Below, one piece after another: positions 31,905-59,401 of a DNA stretch of 64,000 nucleotides (position 1 is the first letter of the stretch; each line of letters begins with the position of its first letter). The translations under genes were made by a program, and so were the position numbers. Location of the stretch: IMG/VR virus record IMGVR_UViG_3300021431_000092, positions 37,738-101,737 of that record. The stretch is one strand, 5' to 3'. Under the pieces are notes generated by a model. The model worked only from the letters and a program-made list of their open reading frames with translations, did no database searches and was not told where the DNA came from. The stretch is from a virus (taxonomy: Duplodnaviria; Caudoviricetes).

Positions 31905-31926
31905 GCTGTTCTATTGTAATGCTGTT

Positions 31927-33140: not shown

Positions 33141-33169
33141 ATTATAACATAAAATTCCAATTTTGTCAA
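33141..33169 (-). promoter_or_regulatory. consensus sigmaA promoter
   Basis: TTGACA-17 nt-TATAAT upstream of ORF 32797-33117. Confidence 0.85.
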
Positions 33170-34642: not shown

Positions 34643-35146
34643 TCTTCCTCCTCATAATACATTCTTAATCCCGTCGGTGTAGTTGCTTTCCCGACTTTCT
34701 TCAACTTTCCGTCATCAACAAGATATAAATAATAAAAGTCACGAGCTGGCTTACTCGTGACTAAATAAACATAACCGCATTTTGTTTGTATCCTTTCCCA
34801 AAGGATTTCACCCTTTGGCATCTTAATATCCTTATTCATAATCAATACTCCTCTGGATACAAAATAGTTGTGCAATACCGGTCACTTTCTGTTATGATCC
34901 AAATCTTGACATTACCTTGTTTGTATGCAGCCAAAATACGATCGCCGCTCTCTACCGCTTCATCGTTTAGATTGGCATCATCTTTGTCTAGCTCGCCCCA
35001 ATCCCCGAAAACATATCGTTTTAGAGATCGCGCCACGAAATCTGCAAAAGCTTGGGACTGTTCCATAGACTCAGAGATTCCAGCGGTTATATATATCTTT
35101 CCTGTTTCAAACTTCTCCATAAATCCTCCTATGTAAATTGATTACC

Positions 35147-35279
35147 GTGCTATCTCTCGCAGCGAGACCAATGAACAGATTTTCTGTTTGTCTCGAAACA
35201 GAAAATCTGAAAATAATCGTTTTGAAACGCCTGCCTTTGGCGAGGCGCGGAACACGAAAGTGATCCATATACATAGCAC
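35147..35279. ncRNA. candidate structured intergenic RNA
   Basis: Closing stem GTGCTAT/ATAGCAC enclosing a 14-bp hairpin, a GC hairpin and a GAAA-loop hairpin. Confidence 0.4.
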
Positions 35280-35299
35280 ATTGTTAATCGTTCTATGTA

Positions 35300-36130: not shown

Positions 36131-36844
36131 ATCTTAACCCACCTTGTCTTCTTTGTATGATTCAATGTTATGAATCTGTTCAAGCAGTGCTTTATCAAAT
36201 TCTTCCTGCGAAATCTCATCGTATTCGTCAGATATGTGATCTACTCCTCTTCTGCAACACCAGATATTCATAAATGATACCTTTGGCAACCGATATTTTG
36301 TTGGAACGTCGTTTTCATGTGTTATCAAGACAATGGCGTGAAGCAAATATGGTTCAAACTTAATATGTCCACATGCATCTTGTGCTGCCATTGGAAGCCC
36401 AATTACTTTATAGTACGCACACTTATTTCCGATGGGCTTTGTTTTATAACACTTGCCGACGAACTGCGAAAACTCAGACCGAACAATCTCGATTTGTTCA
36501 TTCAAGATATTCTCTTCGTCCTTATAATACTTGGCTCTAATGTTTAACAGGTCGCCAAAAACATCGTGTAGACTTCTCATATACCCTCCTCAAAACCCCA
36601 GACGCGGCGCGTTATTGTTATGAAGAAACTCTTGCAAACACTCTGCGCAACCACTCATATGTTTGCACCACTCTTCTTTCTCATCTTCTATCATTGATGT
36701 CATGAAACTAATAATACACGCCGGAGCACCATTTTCTCCCATCGAGTCATTTAATGCAACCAGAAAATCGTACATGTTTTTCCCGGCAAGTATTTCTGCG
36801 TTTGTCCTTCTGCAAGGAACCTCGTCTCTTGCCACTCTATCACC

Positions 36845-37480
36845 TCACTGAAAATCTCTTGCCTTGATCTTAACGATTACTCTTCGACCAAAACGATCGA
36901 GGACTTCACATTCAGGCCGAGCAACGACGCCTTCCATTGGCGCCTTATCACTTACTGTCGAGGTGGCCGTGCTCTTCACGAACTCAACCGCCTCTTCAAT
37001 CGTGCCATAGCCAACAACCGGAACTACATCAACGCCGAACGCCGTCGCGATATCCTCTACGGACTCTCTTGTGAGCCATGTATCCTCGTACATCACGTCA
37101 AATAGGATGAAAGAAACATCGTCTCTGTAAAGAGCACCAACCTTTTGGATCTTCTTGCCATAACCCTCTCCATAAAAGGTTACATCTGCATCGCCAAACT
37201 TCTGTTCGAACAGCTCTTCTGTTTCCGGCGTCATAAATGTATTTGTAAGGTAGTTTACAAGATCGGCGGGGATTTGAGCCTTATCTGTCCGGCCTCCGAT
37301 TTCTACATTATGACCGTCCCAGTGGATTCTAATATTCGTACCGTCGATCTTTTCCGTCCAAATCCACTTTACATCTTTAAGCATCTCGACGGTTTTGTTT
37401 CTGAAATCTCCTTCGATTAGCTTTTTTGAGCCATCAACATCTCTGTTGTACACTGTTTCAATCTTGTGATACTCTTTCAT
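36845..37480 (-). CDS. RNA ligase (Rnl2-like nucleotidyltransferase)
   Basis: TEKIDGTN, YGEGYG, FILFDV, EGVV, IVKIK. Confidence 0.85.
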   Translation of the reverse strand: MKEYHKIETVYNRDVDGSKKLIEGDFRNKTVEMLKDVKWIWTEKIDGTNIRIHWDGHNVEIGGRTDKAQIPADLVNYLTNTFMTPETEELFEQKFGDADVTFYGEGYGKKIQKVGALYRDDVSFILFDVMYEDTWLTRESVEDIATAFGVDVVPVVGYGTIEEAVEFVKSTATSTVSDKAPMEGVVARPECEVLDRFGRRVIVKIKARDFQ

Positions 37481-39298: not shown

Positions 39299-40114
39299 TC
39301 ACACCACATCCTTTTCAACAATCGCAGTTTCAACAACTGCCTTTGAAGTCCCAAGACCAAGATTAAGATCCTTGTACGCATCCATCATCTCGTCCTCAGT
39401 AATTCCTATGTAATCAAGTGTTTGTGCGACACTTGCGTGTCCCATCATCTTCTGTAAAAGCAAAAGTTTTCTCGGATCGTTACCAGAAATTAACATTTGA
39501 TGGTAACAAAATGTCTTTCTGAGTGTGTGAGTGCTCATCTTCATATCTAATCCGACCGCAGAAGCGATACTTTTCAGGATTCTATCTACGTTTCTTGCCG
39601 TTAGAGGTCTGTTCTTATCCTTACCGTTCGGAGACTCGCTCCTAAACATATAGTCGCTAAGCGAAACGCCAGCGACATGTTCAAGATAGAGTGTTACGGC
39701 GTCGATCACTGCCTGATTAACTGTTATGTATCTGTTTTTCTTACGCTTTCTCGTATTCCGTGTCTTCTTTTCAAAGATCGGAACTGTTTCTTTGAAGCAA
39801 AGATCATCTGAAATCAAGTCACAGAATCTCAGTTCGCGCAAGTCACTAACTCGTAGACCAAAATTGATGCCAACAATGAACAACATATAGTCTCTCCATC
39901 TACAACTGTCTATCAGATACCGACAAACCTTATCAATATCGGCAGGATTCTTAATCGGCTCTGCTGTTCTGTCTTCTGCGAGTTCAGAAGATGTGTCTTC
40001 TTTCGCGGGAGTAATCATGCCAACTCTAAGTCGCTGCGATTCGATAACCTGATGTGTTTTATTATCTTGATCGGAACCTGTTCGAATCATTGTTATCATA
40101 ACGAACACCTCCAA
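39299..40114 (-). CDS. second tyrosine recombinase (no arm-binding domain)
   Basis: GLRVSDL, EKKT, HTLRKTF, GH.....TLDY. Confidence 0.9.
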   Translation of the reverse strand: MEVFVMITMIRTGSDQDNKTHQVIESQRLRVGMITPAKEDTSSELAEDRTAEPIKNPADIDKVCRYLIDSCRWRDYMLFIVGINFGLRVSDLRELRFCDLISDDLCFKETVPIFEKKTRNTRKRKKNRYITVNQAVIDAVTLYLEHVAGVSLSDYMFRSESPNGKDKNRPLTARNVDRILKSIASAVGLDMKMSTHTLRKTFCYHQMLISGNDPRKLLLLQKMMGHASVAQTLDYIGITEDEMMDAYKDLNLGLGTSKAVVETAIVEKDVV

Positions 40115-40526: not shown

Positions 40527-41705
40527 TCAACAATCCATCAACTGAACAACAGACTCAGCTACAATCTCTGCCGCCTTGATCGCTTCCTCTTCTGTATTAA
40601 ATTTTGAGAACGAGAACCGAACCGTATTATGCGCCTGCTCGTCATCAAGACCAATTGCTTTAAGAACCTTGCTGCTCTCTGTGCTATGCGCATTACATGC
40701 AGATCCGGCAGAAATGTACACATTTTTTGCGCTAAGAAGAAGAACAAGGCTTTGCGCGTCGACGCCATCAAACGTCATACTCACTATCTTTCCGACATCA
40801 CTCGGAGAAAAACCGTTATAATGGGTTTTTGCAAGCATCTCCTTGCCATTTATAGCAACAAGGCTTCCGAGTAGATGCGTATAAAACGACGATTTTATAT
40901 GCATAATATGATTCAAATCGGCCAATCTCTCATTTATTGCGATTTCAGCCGCGACACCGAGACCAACTATACCCGGAACATTTTCTGTGCCGCCACGCAG
41001 CCCAAATTCCTGCGAGTTGCTACCTGCAATCAAAGGAATTAACGTACTTCCGTCCTTGCAATACAAAACTCCGACGCCTTTCGGCCCGTGAAACTTGTGA
41101 GCAGACAACGACATAAAGTCGCAACCGAGTTTTTGTGTATCAAGATCAATCGTACCAACTGCCTGAACGCAATCCGTATGGAATAAGACCTTATCATAGT
41201 GACAGTGCTCCGCAATCTCACGAATATCATTTGTTGCGCATATCTCGTTGTTAGAAGCCATAACAGATACAAGCTTTATGTCAGGATTAACCATAAGTAT
41301 ATGGTCAATCGCCCCGGTAGGAACGGTTCCGCCTTCTTTGAACACAGGGATCTCAATCGGCATCCTCATTTTGAGCTTCATCGACGACATCTGTGCGTTC
41401 AAACGAACGCTCTCGTGCTCTGTAGCGGAGTGCGCAATCGCAGAGTGTTTATTAAGGCATGTAACACCATGCATAACGGTAGCATTTGACTCACTACCAC
41501 CGGACGTAAAGATGATTTGCTCAGGCTCACAATTCAACATATTTGCAACTGAGTTTCTCGCCTTATCAACCTCTTTCTTCGCCGAGAGACCAATCGAATG
41601 GATTGAGCCTGCGTTTGCAAAATTATCCCATTCATCCATCGCCTGCTTTACTCTTGGATCTATCTGCGTTGTCGCAGCATTATCGAGATATATCACATCT
41701 ACCAC
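40527..41705 (-). CDS. iscS: cysteine desulfurase (IscS/NifS group I)
   Basis: YLDNAATT, TSGGSES, HTDCVQ, SAHKFHGPKG, GTEN, SAGSAC. Confidence 0.93.
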   Translation of the reverse strand: MVDVIYLDNAATTQIDPRVKQAMDEWDNFANAGSIHSIGLSAKKEVDKARNSVANMLNCEPEQIIFTSGGSESNATVMHGVTCLNKHSAIAHSATEHESVRLNAQMSSMKLKMRMPIEIPVFKEGGTVPTGAIDHILMVNPDIKLVSVMASNNEICATNDIREIAEHCHYDKVLFHTDCVQAVGTIDLDTQKLGCDFMSLSAHKFHGPKGVGVLYCKDGSTLIPLIAGSNSQEFGLRGGTENVPGIVGLGVAAEIAINERLADLNHIMHIKSSFYTHLLGSLVAINGKEMLAKTHYNGFSPSDVGKIVSMTFDGVDAQSLVLLLSAKNVYISAGSACNAHSTESSKVLKAIGLDDEQAHNTVRFSFSKFNTEEEAIKAAEIVAESVVQLMDC

Positions 41706-42296: not shown

Positions 42297-42587
42297 TTAT
42301 TCATAAAATTCAGAAAACATATCGTCCAATTCCTTGCTTTCTGTAACACCTACACTGTCAACACGTTCAAGCCATTCAATATCAAAGAGCCATCCTAAGC
42401 TTGCCCATGTATTTGTGTCAGCTAATAAACAACTCCCATTTACTATGGTACTGACAAACGCTGTTGTTCCGATTAATTCGTCCATTTTTCTATTCCATCC
42501 AAGTAATTCAGAACCTATTTCCTTCCCGTCCAAAATACGAACGAGGTCGCCTGCATGTATCATAACGATGTTACCCCCAGAACGCAT
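42297..42587 (-). CDS. SH3/KOW-like small protein with ELDxMF tag
   Basis: AGDLV..GW...MD..IG..W.F..EWL; ends ELDDMFSEFYE. Confidence 0.6.
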   Translation of the reverse strand: MRSGGNIVMIHAGDLVRILDGKEIGSELLGWNRKMDELIGTTAFVSTIVNGSCLLADTNTWASLGWLFDIEWLERVDSVGVTESKELDDMFSEFYE

Positions 42588-43209
42588 TTTTCAACTTTTC
42601 AACAGCCCTCTTTTCAGAATGACTTACACCAGAGTATGTTATATTGAGTTCTTTTGCAATCTCTTGCCTAGAAGTTTCGACCCCATCAATAAGACCGTAC
42701 CTTCGCTTTACAACATACCCTTGTTCGTTTGATAGCGTTGTATTGATTAGATCTAACACGACGCTTTTGCACATAAGCCGATCAACATCTGCTTCAACAT
42801 CAATGCTGTCCGGAATAACCTCTTCGATCGTCAATGACGAGTCGTCGCTGACGATAATATCATCAAACGAACACTCTTTGCTAGTCTTTTTCTTCTGTCT
42901 GAAGTGTAGTTTGAGTATCTCATTTCTAATACACTGGATCGCAAACGCTGAGAATCGCACGCCTGATCTCACTTTATACGCATCGACCGCGTGCATTAGA
43001 CCAACCATACCACATGATATGATATCATCTCTATCTGTATCTGAAAACGAAAAGCCGCGAACAACATATGTTACAAGTTTCATATTATGTGTAATCAAAA
43101 CTTGCCTAGCAAACTCATCGCCGTTCTCCATTCTTGAGAATAAAATCGCTTCTTCTTTTGCAGAAAGCCTGTTTGGGAAGCTATCAACAGACCAATTCAT
43201 GCATCCCAT
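42571..43209 (-). CDS. sigma70-family factor (SigK/SigE-like)
   Basis: LITHNMKLV, DIISCGMVGL..AV..Y, FSAFAIQCIRNEI, region 4 QEIAKELNIT...VS..EKRA. Confidence 0.88.
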   Translation of the reverse strand: MGCMNWSVDSFPNRLSAKEEAILFSRMENGDEFARQVLITHNMKLVTYVVRGFSFSDTDRDDIISCGMVGLMHAVDAYKVRSGVRFSAFAIQCIRNEILKLHFRQKKKTSKECSFDDIIVSDDSSLTIEEVIPDSIDVEADVDRLMCKSVVLDLINTTLSNEQGYVVKRRYGLIDGVETSRQEIAKELNITYSGVSHSEKRAVEKLKNAFWG

Positions 43210-47014: not shown

Positions 47015-48166
47015 CTACATATTTCTCAAATCATCTTTAATACACCTTCTTATATCGATGCCATGTTTGGTAGATATATGATTTACGATTCTGTCTATTG
47101 TTTCCCCTTCTATTGCCTTGTAATATGCACGCAAGCCGTCAAGATGCTGTACGTCCTCCAGAGACCAGTTAATCCCTGCCTTTTTATTCTTGGCATACGC
47201 CGTAAGCATGGACTCGAACTGCCTTTTCTTGCTCCTACCAATTGTCATCTGATTATCCTTGTTCAGCATAATACCGAAGTTCCAGTTTGCGCCACTCGAA
47301 GATCCATATCTAGTTTTCTTCGTATTAAGTTGAAATGGGGCTCCGAACTGATTAAGGATAGACACGATTATCTCTTCGACGTCTTTGAATCTGAATGGAT
47401 TTCGAGACGAAATCAGGAAGTCGTCCGCATATCGAGTATAAACCATACCGAGCTCTCTAAGTTTCTTTGAAATCTCAAAATCAATCGGTATCATCATAAT
47501 GTTTGTGAGCATCGGAGACATCGGAGTACCCTGCGGTAACACACCATCCAAACAACAGAGCTCAAGTGCGTCTCTAAGTGCCGACTCTCCCGTTGTTGTT
47601 CTTAGCAGTATGGCGAACGGATAAATCTGTCTGAACATAGTGATAATAAAATCAATTGTTGTACTGCCGAAGAAGTTGTGCAGATCAAACTTACCGAACC
47701 ACTTCGACTTGTTTGTCTGATGCCGTTTTACGCATTCAATTGTATTGCGGTTATGAATATAAGCAAATGCGCTTGTATGGTACAGATAGTCTGCACCACA
47801 TTCAGATTCGAATATCGTTTTGAGCTCCCTCAAAGCATTCATAAGCTCATCATTTGGTGCATCAATTCGCCTCAGGCCACCTGAGCTTTTCGGAACGTGA
47901 AATGTCCGATATAAACTATGCCTGTCTGCCTCAAGCAAGTTCTTATGATTGCTATTAAACTGCGCAAGTCTCACTGCGATTTGGTAGACGCGCTGTGATA
48001 CATTTTTTCTTATTTCTTTCGGGACTCTGCTTACACATCGAGTAACTGTATTGCTCTTATTATTTGTAATAAGACCGCCATATTCTGCATCATCATCGCC
48101 AAACCAGAGGTCGTCGATGCTCATTTGTCTGTACTTTTGCGATGCAGGCGTGACTACATATAACAT
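47015..48166 (-). CDS. retron-like reverse transcriptase
   Basis: VPKSSGGLRRIDAP, SAFAY, KFDLHNFFGS, LPQGTPMSP, YTRYADD, LNTKKT; ATG at 48166 with AGAAAGGAG RBS. Confidence 0.92.
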   Translation of the reverse strand: MLYVVTPASQKYRQMSIDDLWFGDDDAEYGGLITNNKSNTVTRCVSRVPKEIRKNVSQRVYQIAVRLAQFNSNHKNLLEADRHSLYRTFHVPKSSGGLRRIDAPNDELMNALRELKTIFESECGADYLYHTSAFAYIHNRNTIECVKRHQTNKSKWFGKFDLHNFFGSTTIDFIITMFRQIYPFAILLRTTTGESALRDALELCCLDGVLPQGTPMSPMLTNIMMIPIDFEISKKLRELGMVYTRYADDFLISSRNPFRFKDVEEIIVSILNQFGAPFQLNTKKTRYGSSSGANWNFGIMLNKDNQMTIGRSKKRQFESMLTAYAKNKKAGINWSLEDVQHLDGLRAYYKAIEGETIDRIVNHISTKHGIDIRRCIKDDLRNM

Positions 48167-48181
48167 ACTTTCTCCTTTCTG

Positions 48182-48494
48182 CCGCAATCTGCGTGAGTGC
48201 TTACGATCAGACCTACGACGCCTGAATCTCCTTCAGATATTCTTCTATTCGCGTTGTTCATCTGAAATGATGCGAGTTCCTGATGTATTTGTGGATTTTC
48301 TTGTACTTTGGGCGTTTGTTTGCATCCTATCTGATGGAATATTTTTGTTGAGGCTGTATTCTACTCTTCTGGGGAGCAGCAACTCCAGCTTCGGATCCGC
48401 CGTGGAGTCCCTGAGGCGCCTCTTTCATCTGATCGAGTTGAAGCTCTGGCCACATAGGCGCAGAGCCGACTATAAAAGCCGAATTTCATTGCGG
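48182..48494 (-). ncRNA. retron-like msr/msd ncRNA, RT-proximal copy A
   Basis: CCGCAAT/ATTGCGG a1/a2-like repeat, G at 48487 opposite G at 48189, hairpins CGGCU/AGUCG and GCUCUG..CAGAGC, long-range CGAUCAGA/UCUGAUCG. Confidence 0.8.
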
Positions 48495-48809
48495 TTATTA
48501 AATTTCAATTAATACAAGCCCATCGCTTGATGGTAAATCCCTTTCACATATGTCGAAATACTTGACTGTTTCATTGAAATTGCTCATGATTTCTGTCACA
48601 ATCCCTTTGTAATCTGTACTGTCATAATCTGCATACTCCATAAAGGAGTTTACGAGATCTATGAGTTCATCTCTGTTGATCTGCTTGTCGCTAACAGCCG
48701 ATACGCAAATAGTAACATCCTCGTCATAGAAGTGGAATACAATGGTAGTGGCACGAGGAACTCCGTTCGGGGCAACACCGAAACATCGCATCACAATCAA
48801 TCACCTTCT

Positions 48810-49328
48810 TTACAATTCGTCAAAAAACGCATTAAGTTCTTCGCTATCCTTATAACGCAGTTGACTAACATATTCTACACGTTTTGGATTGCAATAACGT
48901 TCACCGCCTATGCCACATATAGGGTTAGTTGCATCAATAGATTCCAACGGCCAACGAACAACCAGATCTCCGTCGGGGCATACTCGCAACACCTCTCCGA
49001 CAGTACCAACTATTGGAAATATATACGGACTACGCTCGTGTGCATCTTCGTCTATGAATTTTACAAAGTCTCCCTCTCTTAATAACAGTTCAAGCCACGC
49101 AGACTTGAATTGATGATCTTGTATATCGCGCCCCTTATAATTTTCTGGGTTATCATTGCCATCAAATTTCAAACTTATCCATCCATCGTCCGATACTGAT
49201 TCCACGACAAACGTAGATCCACAGAACACCTTAGTCGAATTCGCAAACATCGTTCCGGCATCAACAACGGCTCTGTCGTTCGCATCTTTTACACGAACTC
49301 TCGATCCTATAACTGGTAGACGCTCCAT
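48810..49328 (-). CDS. tandem SH3-like protein with ELxxFF tag
   Basis: Two G(S/D)xV beta modules; ends DSEELNAFFDEL. Confidence 0.6.
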   Translation of the reverse strand: MERLPVIGSRVRVKDANDRAVVDAGTMFANSTKVFCGSTFVVESVSDDGWISLKFDGNDNPENYKGRDIQDHQFKSAWLELLLREGDFVKFIDEDAHERSPYIFPIVGTVGEVLRVCPDGDLVVRWPLESIDATNPICGIGGERYCNPKRVEYVSQLRYKDSEELNAFFDEL

Positions 49329-49332
49329 AAAA

Positions 49333-49650
49333 TCATCCTTTCATCTCTGCGAACAAAGCGTCGAGCTCAGCGCTCTCTTCAGTAATAACCGGTCTTGCAT
49401 AACAGAGGTCGAGCCTTTCAAACCGAATATTTTCATGATGCCATCCAGAGACGTGCATGTCTGATACAATCGCATCATTCCATTTGTCTATTCCGTCTTT
49501 AATTGTGTTGAAATCTGGTACGATAGCTACTACAAGACCGTCTGAAATTTCAGTGATTTTTACAATGACACCGTGATAGTTGCTTCTTGTGATTGGGTTT
49601 TTGTTGAATATAGCGATATCTCCAACCTGTATATCTCCAGCATTAATCAA
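49333..49650 (-). CDS. SH3-like small protein with ELD tag
   Basis: Paralog of 49647; ends EESAELDALFAEMKG. Confidence 0.6.
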   Translation of the reverse strand: MINAGDIQVGDIAIFNKNPITRSNYHGVIVKITEISDGLVVAIVPDFNTIKDGIDKWNDAIVSDMHVSGWHHENIRFERLDLCYARPVITEESAELDALFAEMKG

Positions 49651-49979
49651 GACAAAACACCTCCATCCATTTCAGAAAACATTTTGTCAAGCTCCGGGCT
49701 TTCGTCATATATTGTGCTTGTTTCATAATACGGATCAAGCCTGTCTACCGCAATGATCTCTTTATGTACTCTTCTCTGGTTATCGAAATCAAGTTCCGAA
49801 TTCCACTGTGCAATAGCACCGTACTCAACCTCATCTCTGTTTGGCGTGATCGCGCTTACATGGTTTTCATCATATACTTCAACGACCTTTACAATTGCCC
49901 CTATAAAAACAGGTGCTGTACTGGAATGTCTATTGAATACGGCGAGGTCGCCTAGATGCAGATCTTCAAGATTAAGCAT
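49647..49979 (-). CDS. SH3-like small protein with ELD tag
   Basis: GDLAVFN...G.IVK..E; ends DESPELDKMFSEMDGGVLS. Confidence 0.6.
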   Translation of the reverse strand: MLNLEDLHLGDLAVFNRHSSTAPVFIGAIVKVVEVYDENHVSAITPNRDEVEYGAIAQWNSELDFDNQRRVHKEIIAVDRLDPYYETSTIYDESPELDKMFSEMDGGVLS

Positions 49980-50471
49980 AATCTACCTCCTATCTTTTAT
50001 AAAAAGTGCCCTCAAAGGCATAAGCTACATTCGCCAATACACAGCAACAGTTCTAATCTTTTCTGAACCTCATGAAACTCGTCCTCTGAGACATTATATT
50101 TTTGCATCGTATCGCTCATTTTGCTATCATTTGATATGAACTCCATGCATCCACATCCGCATTCAGTCACGTTACACCTGCCGGTATCATCTGTTTCTCC
50201 GAAATCATTTATATCTGCGTCAACACCGTTAACGCGGAATACCTTTGTGCGGCACGGAAGCAACTTGTATGTTTCGATTTCGATGCTAAGCATAAAACCA
50301 CCCTTTCATAAATCACTTTCTTCTATGTCGGTGACTAAAAAATCGTCAGCCCACTCCACATCTTTATAACCGTATCCATTTGCAATCTCAAGCGCTCTCT
50401 GTTCCGAGTCTGCCTCAATATCAACACTGCCAACTAAAGCAAACGTGACGGTATATTTCATAGTATCACCT

Positions 50472-50786
50472 CTACATTTCTGTGAAATAACTGTCGAGTT
50501 CATTCGTATCTACGCTAAACTCCTCTTCGTGATTCGGAAGCGTAGCAAGTTCGCATTCACTATGCCACCATCTGTCGTCTCCCGTCGTTGATCCGTCAGG
50601 CCACTGTACAAGAACAGAGTTATCGTATTCGGCCGGAATATTTACAACACGTCCGACTGTTCCGATCTCAGGCTCCCATTCATATCCTCGTCTTTTGCCG
50701 TTGTAACCAACGAACTCGACCGTGTCGCCGAATTTTAACATAACATTATTCACCCCCAAAGTCTCCGAAGAAACTATCAAGCTCAT
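50472..50786 (-). CDS. SH3-like small protein with ELD tag
   Basis: PEIGTVGRV...LVQWP; ends VDTNELDSYFTEM. Confidence 0.6.
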   Translation of the reverse strand: MSLIVSSETLGVNNVMLKFGDTVEFVGYNGKRRGYEWEPEIGTVGRVVNIPAEYDNSVLVQWPDGSTTGDDRWWHSECELATLPNHEEEFSVDTNELDSYFTEM

Positions 50787-51036
50787 GAGTGTCTACTTCT
50801 AAAACGCCATAAAGTCTAAGCCAATCCTCGTCGAACCACCAGCGGTCTTCATCCTCTTCGAGCTTATATATAAATGTTCCATCATCCTCCTCATTTATTA
50901 TGTCGATTGTGAAGATTTCACCGACCATATCGTCCATATCATCCCACCATCCAATATTGTTTTCGTCATCGTTTACATTACCTATGACAACTACTTTGTC
51001 TCCTGCGTGAAATAACTGGGCATTCATCGTATCCAC
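50746..51036 (-). CDS. SH3/KOW-like small protein with ELD tag
   Basis: FHAGDKV..GW..MD..VG..WWFDEDWL; ends VDTHELDSFFGDFGGE. Confidence 0.6.
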   Translation of the reverse strand: MDTMNAQLFHAGDKVVVIGNVNDDENNIGWWDDMDDMVGEIFTIDIINEEDDGTFIYKLEEDEDRWWFDEDWLRLYGVLEVDTHELDSFFGDFGGE

Positions 51037-51039
51037 CCC

Positions 51040-51279
51040 TTATATAAAGCTTGAAAAGAACTCATCTAGCGGCGTTTGCCGCTGAATTTCTCCGTAACGG
51101 CACCAACCCATGCCGTCCCAGTTCCCGTCTTGATTCCACTGAATCAAAATTCCTCTGTTGTTGAAGCCCAAAACGGTTCCAACTGAGCCGTTCTGCGGAC
51201 AGAACTTGTATTTTGTACGCTTTTGTGATGTAAAAATCACTTTATCTCCGATTTTATATGCCACTCCGCAACACCTCAT
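51040..51279 (-). CDS. SH3-like small protein with LDEFF tag
   Basis: YKIGDKV..P..GSVGTV..ILIQW; ends PLDEFFSSFI. Confidence 0.55.
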   Translation of the reverse strand: MRCCGVAYKIGDKVIFTSQKRTKYKFCPQNGSVGTVLGFNNRGILIQWNQDGNWDGMGWCRYGEIQRQTPLDEFFSSFI

Positions 51280-51506
51280 CTCAGTGTAGTTCTGCCGGGA
51301 TGACAGTCGTCACACTCTTTGTAGTCTCTTTTTGCGAGCATATTCCAGTTCGAGATCGCATCATAAATATTACTCTTTGTATAAGAACTGTATCCACACA
51401 GCGGACATTTGACATCGAATAATCTTCCAGACTTTCCGGACTGTCTCACATCTGGTTGAGCGCCGCATCTTGGGCATTCTTCTACATTGATAATATCAGA
51501 CGCCAT
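51276..51506 (-). CDS. Lar-like zinc-finger protein
   Basis: CPRCG...CPLCG...AISNWN. Confidence 0.55.
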   Translation of the reverse strand: MASDIINVEECPRCGAQPDVRQSGKSGRLFDVKCPLCGYSSYTKSNIYDAISNWNMLAKRDYKECDDCHPGRTTLR

Positions 51507-51736
51507 AAGATCCTCCTTTTTGCTTGCGTTTGATTATTTCTTCCTTGCTTCTTCCGTAAAGCGGATTGGTTTTTCTTTTTCCAGCAACAAAAGCCGCCGT
51601 CCTATTCCTATCTCGTTCACGTCTCTCTTCAAGAGCTTCTACGATATGCCGAAGCAAATTGATGTCATCTGCGTCGACAGGGTCGAAGATCAGGTCTCTT
51701 GTTGTCAACTCCTTGAGAAACGCAAGCTCTTCATTT

Positions 51737-52045
51737 TTAATGTTCGGCACTATCATCACCTCCGAAGTTCGAGAAAAAATTGTCGAGTTCCTCAGTATCA
51801 ACCGGAGTCTCATCGTATGGGACAAGCCACGCCTCATTACAGTACCAGTGGTTCGTTAACTGAGTTCCGTCATCGTTAAACCTTTGTGCTGGAAATTCGA
51901 CCATATATGCAAGATTGTCTTCGCTATATATTTCTTTTACAACTCCCCAATCTCCGATAAAATAGTACATTGATTGACCCCATCCGCTACTATTATTTGG
52001 AGATGGCGCACACAGAACAACCCTGTCTCCGACATTAAATAACAA
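51737..52045 (-). CDS. SH3/KOW-like small protein with ELD tag (paralog of 37977)
   Basis: TTG start with AAAGGAG RBS; FNVGDRV...WYCNEAWL; VDTEELDNFFSNF. Confidence 0.6.
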   Translation of the reverse strand: MLFNVGDRVVLCAPSPNNSSGWGQSMYYFIGDWGVVKEIYSEDNLAYMVEFPAQRFNDDGTQLTNHWYCNEAWLVPYDETPVDTEELDNFFSNFGGDDSAEH

Positions 52046-52079
52046 TTTTAACACTCCTTTCGTAATATAAGATTCAGAA

Positions 52080-52154
52080 ATCAACCGGCCGGACTTGAAC
52101 CGACAACCTTCCACCGGATATGGCGGACGCTCTCCCTCCTTGAGCTACGGTTGA
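52080..52154 (-). tRNA. tRNA-like gene with aberrant 8-nt anticodon loop
   Basis: UCAACCG/CGGUUGA acceptor, GCUC/GAGC D stem, UUCAAGU T loop; loop CAUAUCCG. Confidence 0.6.
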
Positions 52155-53221
52155 CATGCGGCATAAATAACGGCGATAGACTCGGAACGTAAATACTATG
52201 CACATAGTCTATAAATATGTTTCTAAAAATTTTAATTTACATAAAGTCATACGCTATGCCACATCCGTCAAGCGGCACAACTCTACCGCCGCATGACGTA
52301 TAATCAGAGCTTGCGAGCCACCACATTTAAGGTGCCGGTTTCCATATCATGTATGGCTTTCCGGAATGTCGACTGCTCACGATTATCGCTGTGTCCGCGC
52401 TTATACCGCAATGCTATGCGGCATTTTGAAGAAGCATAAAGAAAACCGGCAGGGCGTTTTGCTCTGCCGGTTCTCTCTTTGCATTTTACATCTCAATGAT
52501 TCGATTTTCAAATTCATTTGCCGAGATACCTTTGTCATAATCTGAAAAGTTAGGAATATCCGTGATAATGATATGAGTTGCGTTTGCGGCTTCTGCCGGT
52601 TCGTATGCGTTCGATGCAGTTTGCTTGTGGTATCTCCACGGCGGAGTATTTACGCCGTTGATTACAGAAATGTGATATCCGTAATCGTTTTCGCCCGTAT
52701 CGCCTTTAATAAGCTGCTCTGCTGTTGCTGTAAGTGCGATCTCTCTTTGCGTTTTCCAGTTTGCCATTTTCCATACCTCCTTTTATGTTCCGGCAGAGGA
52801 TTGCCCCTGCCGGTTCTTTTTTTTATTCGTTTATCATGCTTGATACGGCTGATGCGAACCATTTAGAAGATGGAACATCTTTATGCTGTTTGATGTAATC
52901 ATCAAGTTTCAGCGTCTTGACTGCCTTGCCGTCATTGAACAGCGTATAAACATAACCGTCAAGCGCTGTCCATCTTTCGACTGCTGTCAGATGCTTGTCC
53001 ACATCGTGCTCGGATTCGATGTTTGTGATTGTCTGCTCTGCGGTCTGGTTTGTGCTGTGACCGTTTCGCTTAGCGATTGTTGTATCAAGCGTAATGTGTT
53101 CGATGATTTCAGAACTATTGACATCCACAAGGAACATATCTGTGCAATAGTCATTATAGCTGTACGGGCATTTTTTCAACCAAATTTTCATTTCCCTTAC
53201 CTCCTGCCTATCGGTATCTTT

Positions 53222-53250
53222 ATTGTATCATACCGGAGAGGGTTTGTCAA
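53222..53250 (-). promoter_or_regulatory. sigmaA promoter of a two-gene moron (52823-53191, 52486-52767)
   Basis: TTGACA-17 nt-TACAAT; each gene is followed by a CCGGCAG..CTGCCGG hairpin. Confidence 0.75.
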
Positions 53251-53285
53251 GCCATCTTTCCAGTTTTTACCATAGAAGTATTGTT

Positions 53286-53525
53286 TTATTCGAACTCACC
53301 AAACATATTGTCGAGTTCCGAGCCATCAACATTTGGTTCATCGAGTCCAGACTCTTTCAGATCAAAGTACCGTTCATTAACAGTCCATCCTCCGGGATTT
53401 ACACATATCATCCCGTCCGAAAGTACGTCAATAACCTCCCATTCTGTACCAGTTCTGGTGACAGAGTAATGCTCGCTTGCATATCTGTTGCCAATAATGA
53501 TATCACCTACATGAAACATAATCAC
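53286..53525 (-). CDS. SH3/KOW-like small protein with ELD tag
   Basis: FHVGDII...; ends VDGSELDNMFGEFE. Confidence 0.6.
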   Translation of the reverse strand: MIMFHVGDIIIGNRYASEHYSVTRTGTEWEVIDVLSDGMICVNPGGWTVNERYFDLKESGLDEPNVDGSELDNMFGEFE

Positions 53526-53566
53526 TCCTCCTTAAAATCATCTTGGATTATTTGGTTTATTATAGA

Positions 53567-53639
53567 AGCCGAAGGGCGGACTTGAACCGCCGACGCAGAG
53601 GTTAACTGCCTCCCGCTCTACCAACTGAGCTACTTCGGC
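53567..53639 (-). tRNA. tRNA with GUU (Asn) anticodon, atypical A33 and U73
   Basis: GCCGAAG/CUUCGGC acceptor, canonical D and T arms, loop CAGUUAA. Confidence 0.75.
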
Positions 53640-53692
53640 TACGGACTACACCGAGTCAGAGTCGGCTGCCCGTAATCCTCTAGCGAAAATCT

Positions 53693-53775
53693 GTGTAACA
53701 GCAAGATTTGAACCTTCATAGAACTACCTGTCAACGGTTTACGACCTAGCGTCTGCCATATTCCGCCATGCTACA
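53693..53775 (-). tRNA. degenerate class II (Leu/Tyr-like) pseudo-tRNA
   Basis: UGUAGCA/UGUUACA acceptor, GGCGGAAUAUGGCAGACGC D arm, GGUUCAAAUC; anticodon arm disrupted. Confidence 0.45.
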
Positions 53776-53804
53776 CAGAAACGGGATCTTATATGTGCTT
53801 CTTT

Positions 53805-53878
53805 TAGGCTTGGGCGGAGATCGAACCGCCGTCCCCTCTCCCCAGAAAGGAATTCTACCGTTGAACTACGCAAACCCA
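53805..53878 (-). tRNA. pseudo-tRNA (Gly-like body, GGG anticodon)
   Basis: GUAGUUCAACGGUAGAA D arm, GGCGG/CCGCC T stem with 8-nt loop, irregular acceptor junction. Confidence 0.5.
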
Positions 53879-53917
53879 CACATTTTAATCCTTCGCAGAG
53901 TATCATAACGCCCTACT

Positions 53918-53989
53918 ACCGAGGGAACGGATTTGAACCGATGTCTCAGCCCTCAAATGGCTGAATTCTTACCCCTAAACTACCCTCGT
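53918..53989 (-). tRNA. tRNA-Gln(UUG)-like
   Basis: CGAGGG/CCCUCG acceptor with 1:72 mismatch, CAGCC-AUUUGAG-GGCUG anticodon arm. Confidence 0.65.
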
Positions 53990-54009
53990 TTCAGGCATTA
54001 TTTGTGAAG

Positions 54010-54693
54010 TTATCCATCAAACTCGTCAAGGAACAGATTCGGCCCGTCGAAGTTATACTGGATAAACTTCTTTAGACCCTGTCCTTTTGTGAAATTGATG
54101 AAGTTGGATGTACCGAAACCGCAGATAATTCTAACGGTCTGACACACGCCCAACGTCACGCCGCATGCAGATACCGGAGTTTCATCTGCCGCTTCTTCAT
54201 GGCTGAACTGCATTGTAGACAAAAGATACTTTTTATTATCCTCTTTGCTCCAGTCGGCAGCGTAATGCTGAGCGCCTGTCAACAGTGTACGGAAGTCAAA
54301 CACCGCTTTAACGAACTTCGAAGGTATATGCTTTTCGACAAAATCCCTTCTTACTTCGATACTGTCGACGCAGAGGAACACATATCCGGATAGGAGTTTA
54401 CCCTGCCAGCCTTTTGGTTCAAGTTTCACATCTTTGCAGTCCGGATTAATTTCGCAGAGGATGTCCTTGAGCGCCTCGACCTTGCTCATACCGATATGCT
54501 TTTGTGTGAACATCTGGTTTGCAAGATTATGAGGTTCTACCTCATCAAAATCATAGAGCACAAAGTTTGTCAGGCCGCATCTTGCGAGATTTTCGGCGAC
54601 AGTCGATCCAACAGAACCACATCCGATGATGTGGATCTTTTGTTCGACTTTATCGGGCTGGAAATAGTCATAGAATTTTGCCGTACTAATCAT
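54010..54693 (-). CDS. E1/ThiF-family adenylating enzyme
   Basis: IIGCGSVGS, DFDEVEPHNLANQ, K..AL, CVDS, candidate catalytic TPVSACG. Confidence 0.9.
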   Translation of the reverse strand: MISTAKFYDYFQPDKVEQKIHIIGCGSVGSTVAENLARCGLTNFVLYDFDEVEPHNLANQMFTQKHIGMSKVEALKDILCEINPDCKDVKLEPKGWQGKLLSGYVFLCVDSIEVRRDFVEKHIPSKFVKAVFDFRTLLTGAQHYAADWSKEDNKKYLLSTMQFSHEEAADETPVSACGVTLGVCQTVRIICGFGTSNFINFTKGQGLKKFIQYNFDGPNLFLDEFDG

Positions 54694-54694
54694 C

Positions 54695-55162
54695 TTATGC
54701 CTCCTTCAACTCATGTACTTCGAAGCCGGACAACTCATCAAAACTCATACCCTCGTCGAGTTCAGGCTGTTGAGGATCTTCGTACACATATTCATCATCG
54801 CAGGTATCGTCGTCATCGTCATCGTCTTCCCATGCGTCATCCCATGCACCACGTTCATCCATGATTTCAACGACTTCCTGTTTCAGCCTGTCAAGATCTT
54901 CTTCTTCACACGGGGTATAATCGAAATATCCCTCTCGCAAAAAGAAGTCACATGCCGGCTTTTCGAGTCCGCTCAACGTGTCTCTGCAATCCTCCCAACT
55001 GCCCCAATCGCGATTATCAAAATTATCAAAATCAGATTGGACTTCATCGCTCCAGTCGTCATAATCAAAGTAGTCGTCCGTTACGTAAATATTTTCATTC
55101 TGACAGAAATCACGCAGCTCCCAGAACTGCGTGATACTATCCCAAAACTCCTCTCTTGTCAT
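54695..55162 (-). CDS. very acidic hypothetical protein within the Ubl operon
   Basis: Asp/Glu-rich including a poly-Asp run; tightly coupled to E1. Confidence 0.6.
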   Translation of the reverse strand: MTREEFWDSITQFWELRDFCQNENIYVTDDYFDYDDWSDEVQSDFDNFDNRDWGSWEDCRDTLSGLEKPACDFFLREGYFDYTPCEEEDLDRLKQEVVEIMDERGAWDDAWEDDDDDDDTCDDEYVYEDPQQPELDEGMSFDELSGFEVHELKEA

Positions 55163-55174
55163 ACGAACACCTCC

Positions 55175-56059
55175 TTAATAGTATTCGTCATAGCCGTAGC
55201 TCCACGCTCCATTAGCGTAGTGATATCCCGAATCGACTCCGTCAGCTCTCACCCCTGCTTTTACAGGTTCAGGACTGACTGCTGCTGCGGCGGTCTGCAC
55301 GGCAGATTTGCCAGATTTTGTCAAAGTAGGCTTTGCAGATGATTTTGTCGCAGACTGTGTGGATGCGGTTGTCTTTGTTCCCCAGTATGTAGAACCATAT
55401 CCGCTCTGGTAGCTATATGATTTTTTTGTAATCATCTTCTTTGCATCTTCCATGAGCTTGAGAAATCCCACACTGTCGTCCTGAATCACCTTAACATCAA
55501 CATCGCTGTTCTCGAAAAGTGTGTTTGCCGCCATATCATAGATCATGACCGTTCTCTGGTTTGACTTATTCCAGATCACGAATATATAAAACATGCTATG
55601 ATCGAGCTGGGCAACGAGGCTCTGCTGATGGTCGAGGTCTGTGGCAGACGGAGACGTAGCCATATTCACATGGCTGTGCCCCTGAAACTTCAGGTTATTG
55701 AATGTATCGTCGTCCAGAGAGTACAGCCATTCCTGATACTTCGTCTGGTCTGTGTTTACGGTCGCCCCAGATACTTCCTGCGGGTACACAAGGATGTCCG
55801 TGACAACAAAATTGCTCTCGCCGTCTTTAATTCTCTTTACAACACCGTGCCATGCAGCTTCGGTGTCGTATACTGCCACAAGATACTGCATTTTCGCCCA
55901 TGCAGTTTCTGTAAAGAACAGTGTTGCCCTAGACTCAACCTTTGCGAACTTCGGCTGATATGTTGCTTTATCAAAAGTCGTAAGGCCACGAATCCATTTG
56001 CCGAAATCTTCCATGATACTTGCGATCGCACCTTCGTCGATCTTAACTCTCTTCGCCAT
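55175..56059 (-). CDS. JAB/MPN metallopeptidase
   Basis: Upstream Glu (TEAAW), YPQ, GHSHVNMATSPSATD = HxH-x7-S-x2-D. Confidence 0.88.
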   Translation of the reverse strand: MAKRVKIDEGAIASIMEDFGKWIRGLTTFDKATYQPKFAKVESRATLFFTETAWAKMQYLVAVYDTEAAWHGVVKRIKDGESNFVVTDILVYPQEVSGATVNTDQTKYQEWLYSLDDDTFNNLKFQGHSHVNMATSPSATDLDHQQSLVAQLDHSMFYIFVIWNKSNQRTVMIYDMAANTLFENSDVDVKVIQDDSVGFLKLMEDAKKMITKKSYSYQSGYGSTYWGTKTTASTQSATKSSAKPTLTKSGKSAVQTAAAAVSPEPVKAGVRADGVDSGYHYANGAWSYGYDEYY

Positions 56060-57485
56060 CATGTTCCTCCTCTTCTGCGGACTCGCCGCCATTCAGATAC
56101 TTGACTGCATCTACTGGAGTCGCCTCCGTCCCGTCAGGGAGTAGAATACACTTTTTATCTGTCTCATACATGAGCTGACACCACTTTTCAAGCACTGTGG
56201 TATCATGCAAGTTGAATGACTGCGCAGATACTACGCACTGCTCCATGATGCCGATGTAGTTGTGATCCTGCATCATTCGATTCAAAACCTGTCGATAGTC
56301 ACCGAGGCAACTATACTGGTCAATATGTGTATTGGGGAAATAATTGAGCGCAGCAGAGCTATACTCTGCACGATCGACGCCATACACAGTGCGATCGGAG
56401 ATTGAGATTTTATACTGCGCACAGAACCGCAGTTTTACGCTTTGATCTACAAAAATCGCTTTGAAAAGCTTCGCGAAATCATCGCTCTTCATTCGAGGAC
56501 GGCTCCCGCGAGCCGTGTAGACATACGAATGTTTATTCCCCAGAAGCGTCTCAGCCATGTCTTCGTCCCAATACATGACTGTCGTGAGAACCTCAAATGT
56601 GAGATTGCTGCCGGAACGAGCTGTCATCCTTACTCGACCTTTGTTTTCGATGAAGTAATCACGAAGCTCATTTTCGTTTTCGTCATTGATTCTTGTCGCA
56701 AGACCAATCTCTCTTGTTCTCTCCTCTTCGACATCGCGGAGACACGAGTCTATTCTCCTCTGATGCTCATCGATATTTTCCATTAACGACTTGATACGCT
56801 TTCTTGAATCGTCGAGCGCGCCTTTCATCCACTCAGACTCAAACCCAGTAAGAGCTTCAAGCTTCATTGAGTAAAAGTCAAACTGAGATTCGAAAGCCGC
56901 CAGCGCCTCCGTAAAGTCATTACATCTATTCTTTCTGAGGCTCATCAGCAACGAGCGTTCTTCTGCGGTAAGCCCCTTTTCCTTCGGAAAATACCACGGA
57001 AGAAATGCTGCAAGAGAGCATGTGATGTAATGCATGCGAACGATGTCAAGCCGCCCGATAACAAGGATGCAGGATTTAATATCCTCATTCACGAAACAGC
57101 AGAGCTGGAAACTGCTCTCAAAGAATTTTGTCATTCTCTCGATCCGTGTCCACCCGCTGTATCTTTTGCAGAAGTTATCAATGAGCAGCGAAGGAAGCTC
57201 CGGCATCCTGCTCATGTTGATGACTGTGAGTGTGTTGCTGCAATCAGGAATATCTCCATAAACAACTCCCATTACTGTCTGTTCGCTGCTGTCTTCTATT
57301 GCGGATTTCGAATAGTCCTTTTCTCTATATCTAATATACAGAGATTCATCTCCCATTCTTGACGGGAGAATGGCACGAAGCACAGACTTCAATACCGTAT
57401 CGTATACGTCTTCGCCTGTAATTTTGAATGATCCTTCTACGTCCGGATCTGTGAATGCTGTTTGTCGGATTCTATCAGGAAACAT
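56043..57485 (-). CDS. coiled-coil protein with C-terminal prokaryotic E2-like domain
   Basis: ATG at 57485 with GAGGAGG RBS; central coiled coil; FPNTHIDQYSCLGDY resembles the E2 catalytic region. Confidence 0.65.
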   Translation of the reverse strand: MFPDRIRQTAFTDPDVEGSFKITGEDVYDTVLKSVLRAILPSRMGDESLYIRYREKDYSKSAIEDSSEQTVMGVVYGDIPDCSNTLTVINMSRMPELPSLLIDNFCKRYSGWTRIERMTKFFESSFQLCCFVNEDIKSCILVIGRLDIVRMHYITCSLAAFLPWYFPKEKGLTAEERSLLMSLRKNRCNDFTEALAAFESQFDFYSMKLEALTGFESEWMKGALDDSRKRIKSLMENIDEHQRRIDSCLRDVEEERTREIGLATRINDENENELRDYFIENKGRVRMTARSGSNLTFEVLTTVMYWDEDMAETLLGNKHSYVYTARGSRPRMKSDDFAKLFKAIFVDQSVKLRFCAQYKISISDRTVYGVDRAEYSSAALNYFPNTHIDQYSCLGDYRQVLNRMMQDHNYIGIMEQCVVSAQSFNLHDTTVLEKWCQLMYETDKKCILLPDGTEATPVDAVKYLNGGESAEEEEHDGEES

Positions 57486-57516
57486 ATCACATTCCTCCTC
57501 TAAAATATTGGTTTTA

Positions 57517-57559
57517 TGGTAGCCGTCTGCCGGAGTCGAACCGGCGATCCCTTGACGGC
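57517..57559 (-). ncRNA. mini tRNA-like element (acceptor + T arm + CCA)
   Basis: GCCGUC-AAGGGAUC-GCCGG-UUCGACU-CCGGC-A-GACGGC-UACCA. Confidence 0.55.
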
Positions 57560-57590
57560 AAAAACCCCGCTGATGGGGGACAGCGGGGTT
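57560..57590 (-). terminator. terminator-like hairpin between Ubl and E2-like genes
   Basis: AACCCCGCTG/CAGCGGGGTT 10-bp stem ending in a U5 run on the - strand. Confidence 0.55.
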
Positions 57591-57752
57591 GGTTTCAGGT
57601 TTCATTTATGCGGCTCGGTACGAAGCTTCGCATAAATATCGGATAAGAGGAACACCTTCTCATGGCTCGGAAGGCGCGGATCGCTTACGATATGCCTGAC
57701 CAGCTTTTCGCTTGCACCGCGAGCAATCAGCGCCGCGCCGATCTGCCTGAGT

Positions 57753-57986
57753 TTACTGACCGGCATTGTCTGCCTTTACCACGTTCAGCAGAGTAGCCTT
57801 CTCAGTAATACCCAGTTCTGCGAAGCTCTTATCGAGTTCGCCGCGCTGGAGCGGAGCGCCGTCAAGAGTTGTGACGCCGATACCATAATCGATTTCCTGC
57901 TCTTCGAGGAGCTGACGCGGTGTCTTTGCATCGTCGACCATCACTGTGTTTCTCTTCATATTGTTTCCAACTTTAATCATCAACAT
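57753..57986 (-). CDS. ubiquitin-like (beta-grasp) small protein
   Basis: 77 aa; T.RQLLE, LDG..L...LDKSF.ELGI....L pattern; C-terminus KADNAGQ; heads the E2-JAB-E1 cluster. Confidence 0.75.
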   Translation of the reverse strand: MLMIKVGNNMKRNTVMVDDAKTPRQLLEEQEIDYGIGVTTLDGAPLQRGELDKSFAELGITEKATLLNVVKADNAGQ

Positions 57987-58152
57987 AATAATTCTCCTTT
58001 TTCACTGTGTGGCTTTGCCACTTTGATTTATGTAAACCGGACTTTCCGGCTACATTCGAATGAACCGCCGCCGAATTTGGTTGCATCGGCGGCGGCGCCG
58101 TGATACTGCGGCTATGTAACCGCATCGGTTGCGGCTTTATGCCGCTGTCGAA

Positions 58153-58557
58153 TTACTCTACTTCGATTGCAGAGACGACGGCTGCCTTGCGAGCTGCGAT
58201 TTCCTCAATGACTGCCGGAAGTGCCTCTTCGATCAGGTTGAGGTTTGTGATTGCAATGCCGAACTTGTCAGCGACTTCTTCCTTCAGCTCTCCTCCCGTA
58301 GCGTCGCTACGGAAACCAATTGTAAGTGTTGCGTAACCATTGCCGTCGCGGCTCACACCGTCAAACGAAACGCCGACGTTGTTGATCTTACCAGTGCCGT
58401 CAGTCATGCCGATTGCGAAGAACGGAACCGTTTCATTACCATCCTTCTTTGTCAGGACGAGGGATTCCGGACGGTACTTCGCCGCGAGGCGAATGTCCTC
58501 TGCCTTAATTGCGGATGTGAGAATTGCTGCGTTACCTACGATCTGAATCTTTGCCAT
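58153..58557 (-). CDS. hypothetical protein upstream of Ubl
   Basis: 134 aa with strong RBS. Confidence 0.6.
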   Translation of the reverse strand: MAKIQIVGNAAILTSAIKAEDIRLAAKYRPESLVLTKKDGNETVPFFAIGMTDGTGKINNVGVSFDGVSRDGNGYATLTIGFRSDATGGELKEEVADKFGIAITNLNLIEEALPAVIEEIAARKAAVVSAIEVE

Positions 58558-58825: not shown

Positions 58826-59401
58826 TCATTCTGTTGTTGTTTTCATGGAATCCCCTTTTGCAAGAGATCCGTATGGATATTCGCTAAAGAATTGTTTGCC
58901 ATCTTCACCGACTAAGTACATCGGACGGTAAAGCGGAAGTTTATATTGTTTTCCAATTATATCGCAAAGAACCTCCTTTGCCGTGCTGACAGCCTTCTTG
59001 AACGCATCGTCGTCCACTTTGAGCCAATCAGCGCCGAGCATATCGGATATTGCATTGCTTATGATATCATCGAGTTCCGCCTCGCGCTCTTGAATATCGT
59101 ATTCTTCTGCGGCACTTTCGTCAATTTCTGTCACCTCAAGATCGTCATACTCGATACCAATATCGCTCAACGCGATCATATATTGTTCCATAGCATCGGT
59201 TTTGTTTATTGCCTCATATTCGTGCATCGGTTCTTCGCCGCAGAACACAGTGAATGTAGGGAGACCGTCATCATTTGTTATCCACACACTCCAGTTGTCT
59301 GACTGAGCGCATCTGTGATGCGCTTGTTCTAATTTCACTGCATTCTTTTCGAAGTATTCCCAGATTTCATCCGGAGATACTACGACCTCTTCGAATCCCA
59401 T
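58826..59401 (-). CDS. hypothetical acidic protein
   Basis: 191 aa ORF with GGAGG RBS. Confidence 0.55.
   Translation of the reverse strand: MGFEEVVVSPDEIWEYFEKNAVKLEQAHHRCAQSDNWSVWITNDDGLPTFTVFCGEEPMHEYEAINKTDAMEQYMIALSDIGIEYDDLEVTEIDESAAEEYDIQEREAELDDIISNAISDMLGADWLKVDDDAFKKAVSTAKEVLCDIIGKQYKLPLYRPMYLVGEDGKQFFSEYPYGSLAKGDSMKTTTE

Follow-up and report, generated by a model that had tools for sequence, protein, structure and literature searches.

The right-hand 64 kb of the gut phage record IMGVR_UViG_3300021431_000092 (101,737 bp in total; these 64,000 nt are referred to below as the window) contains a cluster of six co-directional genes on the minus strand, at positions 54010-58557. We call this cluster the kit, because its products resemble the parts of a system that would tag other proteins with a ubiquitin-like protein (Ubl). 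The kit encodes a 134-aa partner protein ('up134', 58153-58557), which is conserved directly upstream of the Ubl; a 77-aa Ubl of beta-grasp, ThiS-like type that ends in ...KADNAGQ (57753-57986); an E2-like protein of 480 aa with a predicted UBC/RWD-like C-terminal domain (56043-57485); a JAMM/JAB peptidase with an intact motif and a variable, low-complexity C-terminal tail (55175-56092); a hyper-acidic protein of 155 aa between JAB and E1 (54695-55162); and a ThiF-type E1 of 227 aa (54010-54693). The original prediction, made from the window by itself, had described the last five of these genes as a complete operon. All five are present, but the set was not complete, as it omitted the conserved partner gene, which is fused to the Ubl gene in some relatives.

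The genes from E2-like to E1 are tightly packed. The E2-like/JAB, JAB/acidic and acidic/E1 junctions overlap or have a spacing of 1-12 nt (12 nt between JAB and the acidic gene, and 1 nt between the acidic gene and E1). A 267-nt spacer separates the Ubl gene from the E2-like gene. Within this spacer, we read a terminator-like element on the minus strand at 57560-57588, made up of a hairpin (57565-57588; CCCCGCTG...CAGCGGGG) and then TTTTT. Such a hairpin could set a high ratio of Ubl to the enzymes. In the region 57517-57590, the hairpin is followed by sequence that resembles the T-arm, the 3' half of the acceptor and the CCA of a tRNA; ARAGORN calls no tRNA there. An open reading frame (ORF) for 54 aa in the spacer (57602-57766) has relatives in none of the loci described below and is probably not a gene.

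The same gene order was found in 49 IMG/VR contigs (23-137 kb), identified with a profile of the E2-like protein, and in 52 gut contigs from metagenome-assembled genomes (MAGs), identified with an E1 profile. The MAG contigs are mostly in Clostridia bins. Because the order recurs in so many contigs, the kit is far more than a chance arrangement. Partner, Ubl, E2-like, JAB and E1 follow each other in this order in nearly all loci with sufficient flanking sequence. Clustering of the ORFs from the 101 loci placed the genes of the conserved block in 88-101 loci, and the next commonest flanking families in at most 66 and at most 46. One kit copy is inside a 359-kb bacterial contig and is therefore probably part of an integrated prophage. 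This copy and the integrases encoded in the window indicate a temperate phage. A DNA search of GenBank phages gave no match, and a protein search of GenBank (50,697 phages) returned only one relative of the 480-aa protein, with 27% identity, in an unannotated record (MT835544.1:30343-31419). One relative, an uncharacterised protein, was present in BFVD. Searches of Pfam, NCBIfam, PHROGs and PADLOC returned nothing useful for the Ubl, 480-aa, acidic and partner proteins.

The E2-like ORF extends over 56043-57605 (520 aa), and a start at the ATG at 57485 gives the 480-aa protein. We consider this ATG to be the real start because it is preceded by a GAGGAGG ribosome-binding site and because all homologues begin there with MF. 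The protein carries the motif PNTHIDQYSCLG. A word-based search gave just 16 relatives of the protein. A profile search over 1.84 billion representatives revealed 2,397 relatives, 1,097 of them at E-values of 1e-30 or lower; nearly all are ~480 aa long and none has a Pfam domain. The PDB, searched with the single sequence and with the family profile, returned coiled-coil noise or nothing. PF14460 misses the 480-aa homologue in a prophage-bearing genome (G011), and a search for Prok-E2_D sequences gave one hit in 301 genomes.

Structure prediction divided the 480-aa protein into three parts (full-length model; predicted local distance difference test score, pLDDT, 86.9): an N-terminal alpha/beta domain (residues ~1-210) is followed by a helix of ~55 residues (215-267), and the C-terminal domain (270-465) is UBC/RWD-like. 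The long helix dominated fold searches with the whole model, swamping the VIA-align list, so we folded residues 270-480 alone. The resulting model, based on 108 sequences, had a pLDDT of 94.4 and a predicted template-modelling score (pTM) of 0.87. Its topology starts with a helix and a pair of strands; after a helical insert come a second pair of strands, a loop with Pro-Asn, a Cys-Leu pair eight residues on and, finally, three helices (DSSP of model m29647f39c1fd: H2-11, E16-22, E25-33, insert, E82-92, E97-100, P115-N116, C124, H128-137, H141-153, H160-172). The strand meander and the Pro-Asn eight residues ahead of a Cys follow the layout of the UBC/RWD superfold and of E2 enzymes. The structural neighbours of the domain are mostly RWD and E2 folds, and the E2 of the bacterial Bil system was tied for second. 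His387, Cys393 and Ser420 are invariant in the 108 sequences. The spacing from Pro-Asn to Cys is presumably that of E2 enzymes such as UbcH5, and we infer from the model that Cys393 is the equivalent of the E2 catalytic Cys. The original prediction had named the lack of a UBC fold in this protein as one result that would refute it, and the predicted domain, with an invariant Cys eight residues past Pro-Asn, does not bear out that refutation.

The JAB gene probably starts at a conserved Met12 codon at 56059, where it would overlap the end of the E2-like gene. The peptidase motif is intact (E78...H139-S-H141-x7-S149-x2-D152). Among 43 sequences, the motifs E..aWHG and QGHSHVNM...PS..D are at least 95% conserved, so the HxH-x7-S-x2-D signature noted originally is both present and conserved. 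Library matches of the JAB protein are weak (4e-4 for the PADLOC JAB model and 0.037 for Pfam Prok-JAB). The acidic protein encoded next to it has an isoelectric point (pI) of 4.05, with 36% Asp+Glu, and no family match in the four libraries named above. Roughly one in two distinct loci has an acidic ORF of 110-203 aa (pI 4.1, 28-41% Asp+Glu) at this place between JAB and E1; where the gap is shorter than 400 nt, there is none. The acidic protein is a fast-evolving accessory and not part of the core.

The Ubl is detected by no library model, including PF02597 (ThiS). Its Atlas model (pLDDT 0.78) has Multi_ubiq (TM score 0.73) and ThiS/MoaD (TM score 0.63-0.70) as neighbours. We also built a ThiS profile from 27 distinct sequences of Clostridia, and hhalign matched it to the profile of the Ubl family over 43 core columns (probability 73.5%, p 3e-5). 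A PDB search with the Ubl profile turned up coiled-coil noise at best. These results moderately support a ThiS-like beta-grasp fold and are in line with the beta-grasp-like character seen originally in the sequence.

The C-terminus of the Ubl is informative about its maturation. A stop codon directly follows KxxNA in 59 of 84 Ubl copies, and in approximately 20 of the 84 it is followed by a further 1-4 residues that are not conserved (A, R, AA, YAA and GNDV, among others). The motif reads KADNA in 73 of the 81 copies that have it. As most copies stop at KxxNA, the mature Ubl should end in Ala, and the GQ found in the window should be a removable tail. Originally, JAB had been expected to trim either Q or GQ; the comparative data favour removal of GQ, exposing Ala, and not removal of Q, exposing Gly. 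In five cases, the C-terminus of the Ubl is fused to the 134-aa partner, with ...KADNA running directly into AE... (L039:4119-4736, L039:4848-5480, L083:1606-2370, L091:4907-5518 and L084:5110-5754). Stops at KxxNA, short tails and five fusions at the same point together form the pattern of processed Ubl precursors, and the Ubl-partner proteins resemble ubiquitin-fusion precursors. These fusions would give JAB an obligatory processing job, and they tie the partner to the system.

The partner was found by tblastn in most loci. Ubl and partner are duplicated in tandem in three loci (L039, L043 and L060), as free pairs or as fusions. The partner has no match in Pfam, in the PDB (profile search) or in the Atlas, and its own Atlas model is poor (pLDDT 0.40), with no usable neighbour. 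We rejected a kinship of the partner with the Ubl or ThiS: there is no profile similarity, and it clustered with the Ubl only via the fusion proteins.

E1 is the best-conserved gene of the kit, with relatives that are 52-70% identical. It matches the Pfam ThiF model PF00899 with 80.8 bits against a cut-off of 28.1 (1.1e-22), and its family profile matched Uba1, UBA5 and MoeB in the PDB at 1e-14 to 1e-17. The protein is a single Rossmann domain that contains TPVSACG and no CxxC pairs, both of which had been read correctly at the outset. The GCGSVGS loop (G24/G26/G29), Lys71, Asp110 and Cys177, the last in a P-x-S-x-C motif, are invariant in 24 sequences; Lys6, Arg38, Arg115 and Arg135 are also invariant. 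The best NCBIfam match of E1 is the ThiF of the ThiS pathway, far under the cut-off. Its best PADLOC matches are Cap2 E1-E2 models (8.7e-20), which cover only the Rossmann core, residues 17-87.

The window also encodes a retron-type reverse transcriptase (RT) on the minus strand at 47015-48187 (PADLOC RT_II-A, 2.9e-48), whose link to the kit in relatives the original prediction missed. The clustering of ORFs placed the RT among the families of the conserved block. The RT gene is downstream of E1, on the same strand, in 93 of the 101 loci; the gap has a median of 790 nt (mostly 217-2314 nt), and six of the other eight loci have less than 4 kb of sequence past E1. In the reverse direction, we seeded the search with an RT alignment and took the best 80 of 225 RT relatives. 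Of these loci, 71 extend at least 7 kb upstream, and every one of the 71 contains E1, JAB and the E2-like gene (gaps 286-1648 nt). The window is an outlier in this respect, as an insertion of 5,823 nt (48188-54009) with tRNA-like and small SH3-like genes separates E1 from RT. This split shows that adjacency of E1 and RT is not essential. Within the same interval, ARAGORN made four tRNA calls (52079, 53565, 53805 and 53917), one of them with an odd anticodon loop, and several small proteins have an ELDxFFxxFGG-like tail. The linkage of kit and RT could be functional or could be the conserved layout of one phage lineage; the variability of the flanks speaks for a functional link.

We consider it probable, though far from certain, that the kit is a phage-encoded Ubl conjugation system that uses E1-E2-type chemistry with JAB maturation. 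The Ubl would first carry a short tail, GQ in this phage, or be produced as a fusion to the partner, as in some relatives. JAB would cut past ...K-A-D-N-A, freeing a C-terminal Ala. The ThiF-type E1, probably a homodimer, would then adenylate this Ala and may hold the Ubl on Cys177. From there, the Ubl would move to Cys393 in the UBC/RWD-like domain of the 480-aa protein, whose long helix may serve to dimerise it or to space its domains and whose N-terminal alpha/beta domain may select the target. Finally, the Ubl would be attached to a lysine of the target, and JAB may also reverse the tag. Based on the position of the kit in the leftward early/replication arm and on the RT joined to it in relatives, we think that its role is in conflict between phage and host or between phages, either in the course of an infection or from the prophage, and not in virion assembly.

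Several observations weigh against this interpretation. The Ubl ends in Ala, not Gly. E1 has no Zn site and, in an alignment to Uba1 and UBA5, a family-invariant Asn59 replaces the canonical ATP-binding Arg of N-L-x-R-Q; ATP may instead be bound by another E1 residue, with Lys6, Arg38, Arg115 and Arg135 as invariant candidates, or E1 may use a different chemistry. The 480-aa protein has no Pfam match at E<=0.1, UQ_con and Prok-E2_A-E included, and Foldseek comparisons of the full-length and C-domain models with the PDB (E<=0.001) gave no match. No E3 and no target were identified.

We compared the kit with known systems. Its closest working model is Bil, followed by CBASS (cyclic-oligonucleotide-based antiphage signalling system) Cap2/Cap3, and it is a member of neither, nor of PRTRC. 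Bil consists of BilABCD, that is, a Ubl, an E2, a JAB deubiquitinase and an E1 (PMC10557695), and is listed as class 6d by Iyer, Burroughs and Aravind (2006; PMC1779556). Both Bil and the kit have a JAB/JAMM peptidase in the operon. However, Bil is found in bacterial defence islands and the kit in phages, where it is conserved in the early arm. The mature Bil Ubl universally ends in Gly, whereas the kit Ubl has Ala after Asn. BilD has an inactive and an active adenylation domain, a mobile catalytic-Cys domain and a Zn site (PMC10557695). The kit E1, in contrast to this multi-domain enzyme, has one Rossmann domain in 227 aa, with neither Zn nor the NLxRQ Arg. The kit further differs from Bil in that the E2 fold is the C-terminal third of a three-part 480-aa protein, and in adding the 134-aa partner and the linkage to a retron RT. 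Among defence-system profiles, none detects the Ubl or the E2-like protein, and JAB and E1 match only generic CBASS JAB and E1-E2 models.

A ThiF-type E1, an E2 fold and a JAB peptidase are common to the kit and the Cap2/Cap3 pair of Type II CBASS. Cap2 is a fused E1-E2, whereas the kit has separate genes, a dedicated beta-grasp modifier and no effector, and the genes scanned with PADLOC gave no match to a CD-NTase. Some CD-NTases of CBASS may tolerate a C-terminus other than Gly. PRTRC systems of plasmids and integrative and conjugative elements (NCBIfam TIGR03735-03742) are, like the kit, borne by mobile elements and combine a small ThiF-like E1 and a small Ubl-like protein with a JAB-like protein and several uncharacterised ones. 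The kit E1, however, scores 21.7 bits against the PRTRC_ThiF cut-off of 144.75, the other PRTRC models match no kit gene, and there is no ParB-related gene.

The RT linkage allows for a different organization, in which the kit and the RT with its non-coding RNAs (ncRNAs) are one unit. The chemistry would be the same and the wiring different: the kit could be the effector arm under control of retron DNA, or could tag the RT or a DNA-bound protein, and the unit might be borne by a prophage to exclude other phages. We take this possibility seriously without leaning towards it. Retrons combine an RT with an msr-msd ncRNA and an effector, and the RT neighbouring the kit is retron-type and is co-inherited with the kit in the way that the RT and the effector of a retron are. 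The downstream RT in kit-seeded loci, the presence of the kit in every RT-seeded locus with enough upstream sequence, the higher frequency of block genes than of flanking families, and the temperate character of the phage are all consistent with one unit. On the other hand, the loci may all come from a single broad phage lineage, in which case common descent and conserved phage synteny could account for the linkage, and in the window 5.8 kb splits the kit from the RT with neither apparently lost. The carrier is a phage, and the PADLOC effector models for retrons match no kit gene. To our knowledge, no known retron type uses Ubl machinery, and we found no retron effector with a Ubl, E1, E2 or JAB in the searched literature. 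A more specific version, in which the kit and the RT are a new kind of phage system that mechanistically couples reverse-transcribed DNA to Ubl tagging, we regard as rather doubtful. Retron DNA might gate E1 and E2, or the complex of RT and DNA, or proteins that bind it, might receive the tag. The phage would use such a system, when infecting or as a prophage, against rival phages or the defences of the host.

Two further explanations retain the E1 and the Ubl and change the role of the 480-aa protein. It might be a non-catalytic adaptor of RWD type, with E1 alone modifying the end of the Ubl, by an adenylation or cyclisation near the conserved Asn like those of MccB, PaaA or TcdA, or transferring it directly without an E2, as for Urm1. 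This is unlikely: His387 and Cys393 are invariant in the 108 diverse members, at the spacing of an E2 active site, the Bil E2 is among the closest structural matches, and the 227-aa E1 has no N-terminal peptide-clamp domain like that of MccB and PaaA. Alternatively, the Ubl could be a sulfur carrier comparable to ThiS, MoaD or TtuB. E1 would adenylate it, an IscS-like desulfurase of the phage would make the thiocarboxylate for a thiolated nucleoside or cofactor, and the 480-aa protein would be a scaffold. The pairs ThiS-ThiF, MoaD-MoeB and TtuB-TtuC indeed combine a minimal E1 of ~230-250 aa with a ThiS-like beta-grasp protein, as does the kit, and a JAMM protein is also found in Thermus. In addition, the phage is rich in tRNA and tRNA-repair genes, the best NCBIfam match of E1 (again, far below the cut-off) is to a sulfur-carrier pathway, and the window has an IscS/NifS-like Aminotran_5 gene at 40527-41705 (Pfam 6.7e-65). 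Of 10 related records searched, 9 have this gene, and these include all nine that are near-complete (the tenth is only 57% complete), but its co-occurrence is uninformative because all these genomes are related phages. It is also unlinked to the kit, at a variable distance of 10-40 kb. Known sulfur carriers end in Gly-Gly, whereas the phage Ubl ends in Asn-Ala and escapes the ThiS model. The kit lacks the rhodanese domain and the Zn site of these pairs, and the ORFs scanned include no PP-loop thiolase or ThiG/MoaE-type partner. Sulfur transfer needs neither a UBC-like protein with an invariant Cys, which the kit has, nor a JAB with precursor fusions. We therefore consider the sulfur-carrier role very unlikely, and conjugation of the Ubl to proteins remains our preferred reading.

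The kit is in the early/replication arm, as nearly all genes from ~7 kb to 64 kb of the window are on the minus strand. The window encodes an endolysin, integrases, NrdD, a DNA polymerase, a DnaB-like helicase and a primase in addition to the retron-type RT. Upstream of the partner gene, an acidic protein of 191 aa (58826-59401; pI 4.1) without a family is present in 66 of the 101 loci and may be a further member of the block. Another family (F6, ~220-270 aa) is found in 51 loci, often twice and at varying positions, either before the partner gene or in the gap between E1 and RT (for example, in L013, L010, L047 and L053), a pattern that suggests a mobile or homing gene. The phage also encodes a sigma-70-family factor of its own and three genes of tyrosine-recombinase type, of which one has an MrpR-like N-terminal domain (42571-43209; 7429-8469; 39299-40114; 30080-31033). 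A tRNA-repair-like toolkit at 29433-37480 includes an RNA ligase (36845-37480), a Thg1-like 3'-5' nucleotidyltransferase (33875-34642) and an HD-domain protein (29433-30002).

In the literature that we searched, the experimentally studied prokaryotic sets of Ubl, E1, E2 and JAB (CBASS Cap2/Cap3, Bil and Bub) are bacterial weapons against phages. Here, the virus owns the machinery, and neither a phage-encoded set of this kind nor a retron joined to Ubl machinery was found in that literature. The kit has been kept in a large group of temperate gut phages with Clostridia-type hosts and is built of unannotated families; one of them, that of the E2-like protein, by itself comprises ~2,400 cluster representatives. 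Several rules of such systems do not hold for the kit: the Ubl ends in Ala, E1 has neither the canonical Arg nor a Zn site, and the predicted E2 fold is part of a 480-aa protein. The kit is small enough for reconstitution in E. coli, and its strict pairing with a retron-type RT suggests a connection, so far unexplored, of protein tagging with reverse transcription. If the kit does conjugate proteins, it would be the first phage-encoded tagging system of its kind in the searched literature and would add a new layer to the conflict between phages and their hosts and among phages.

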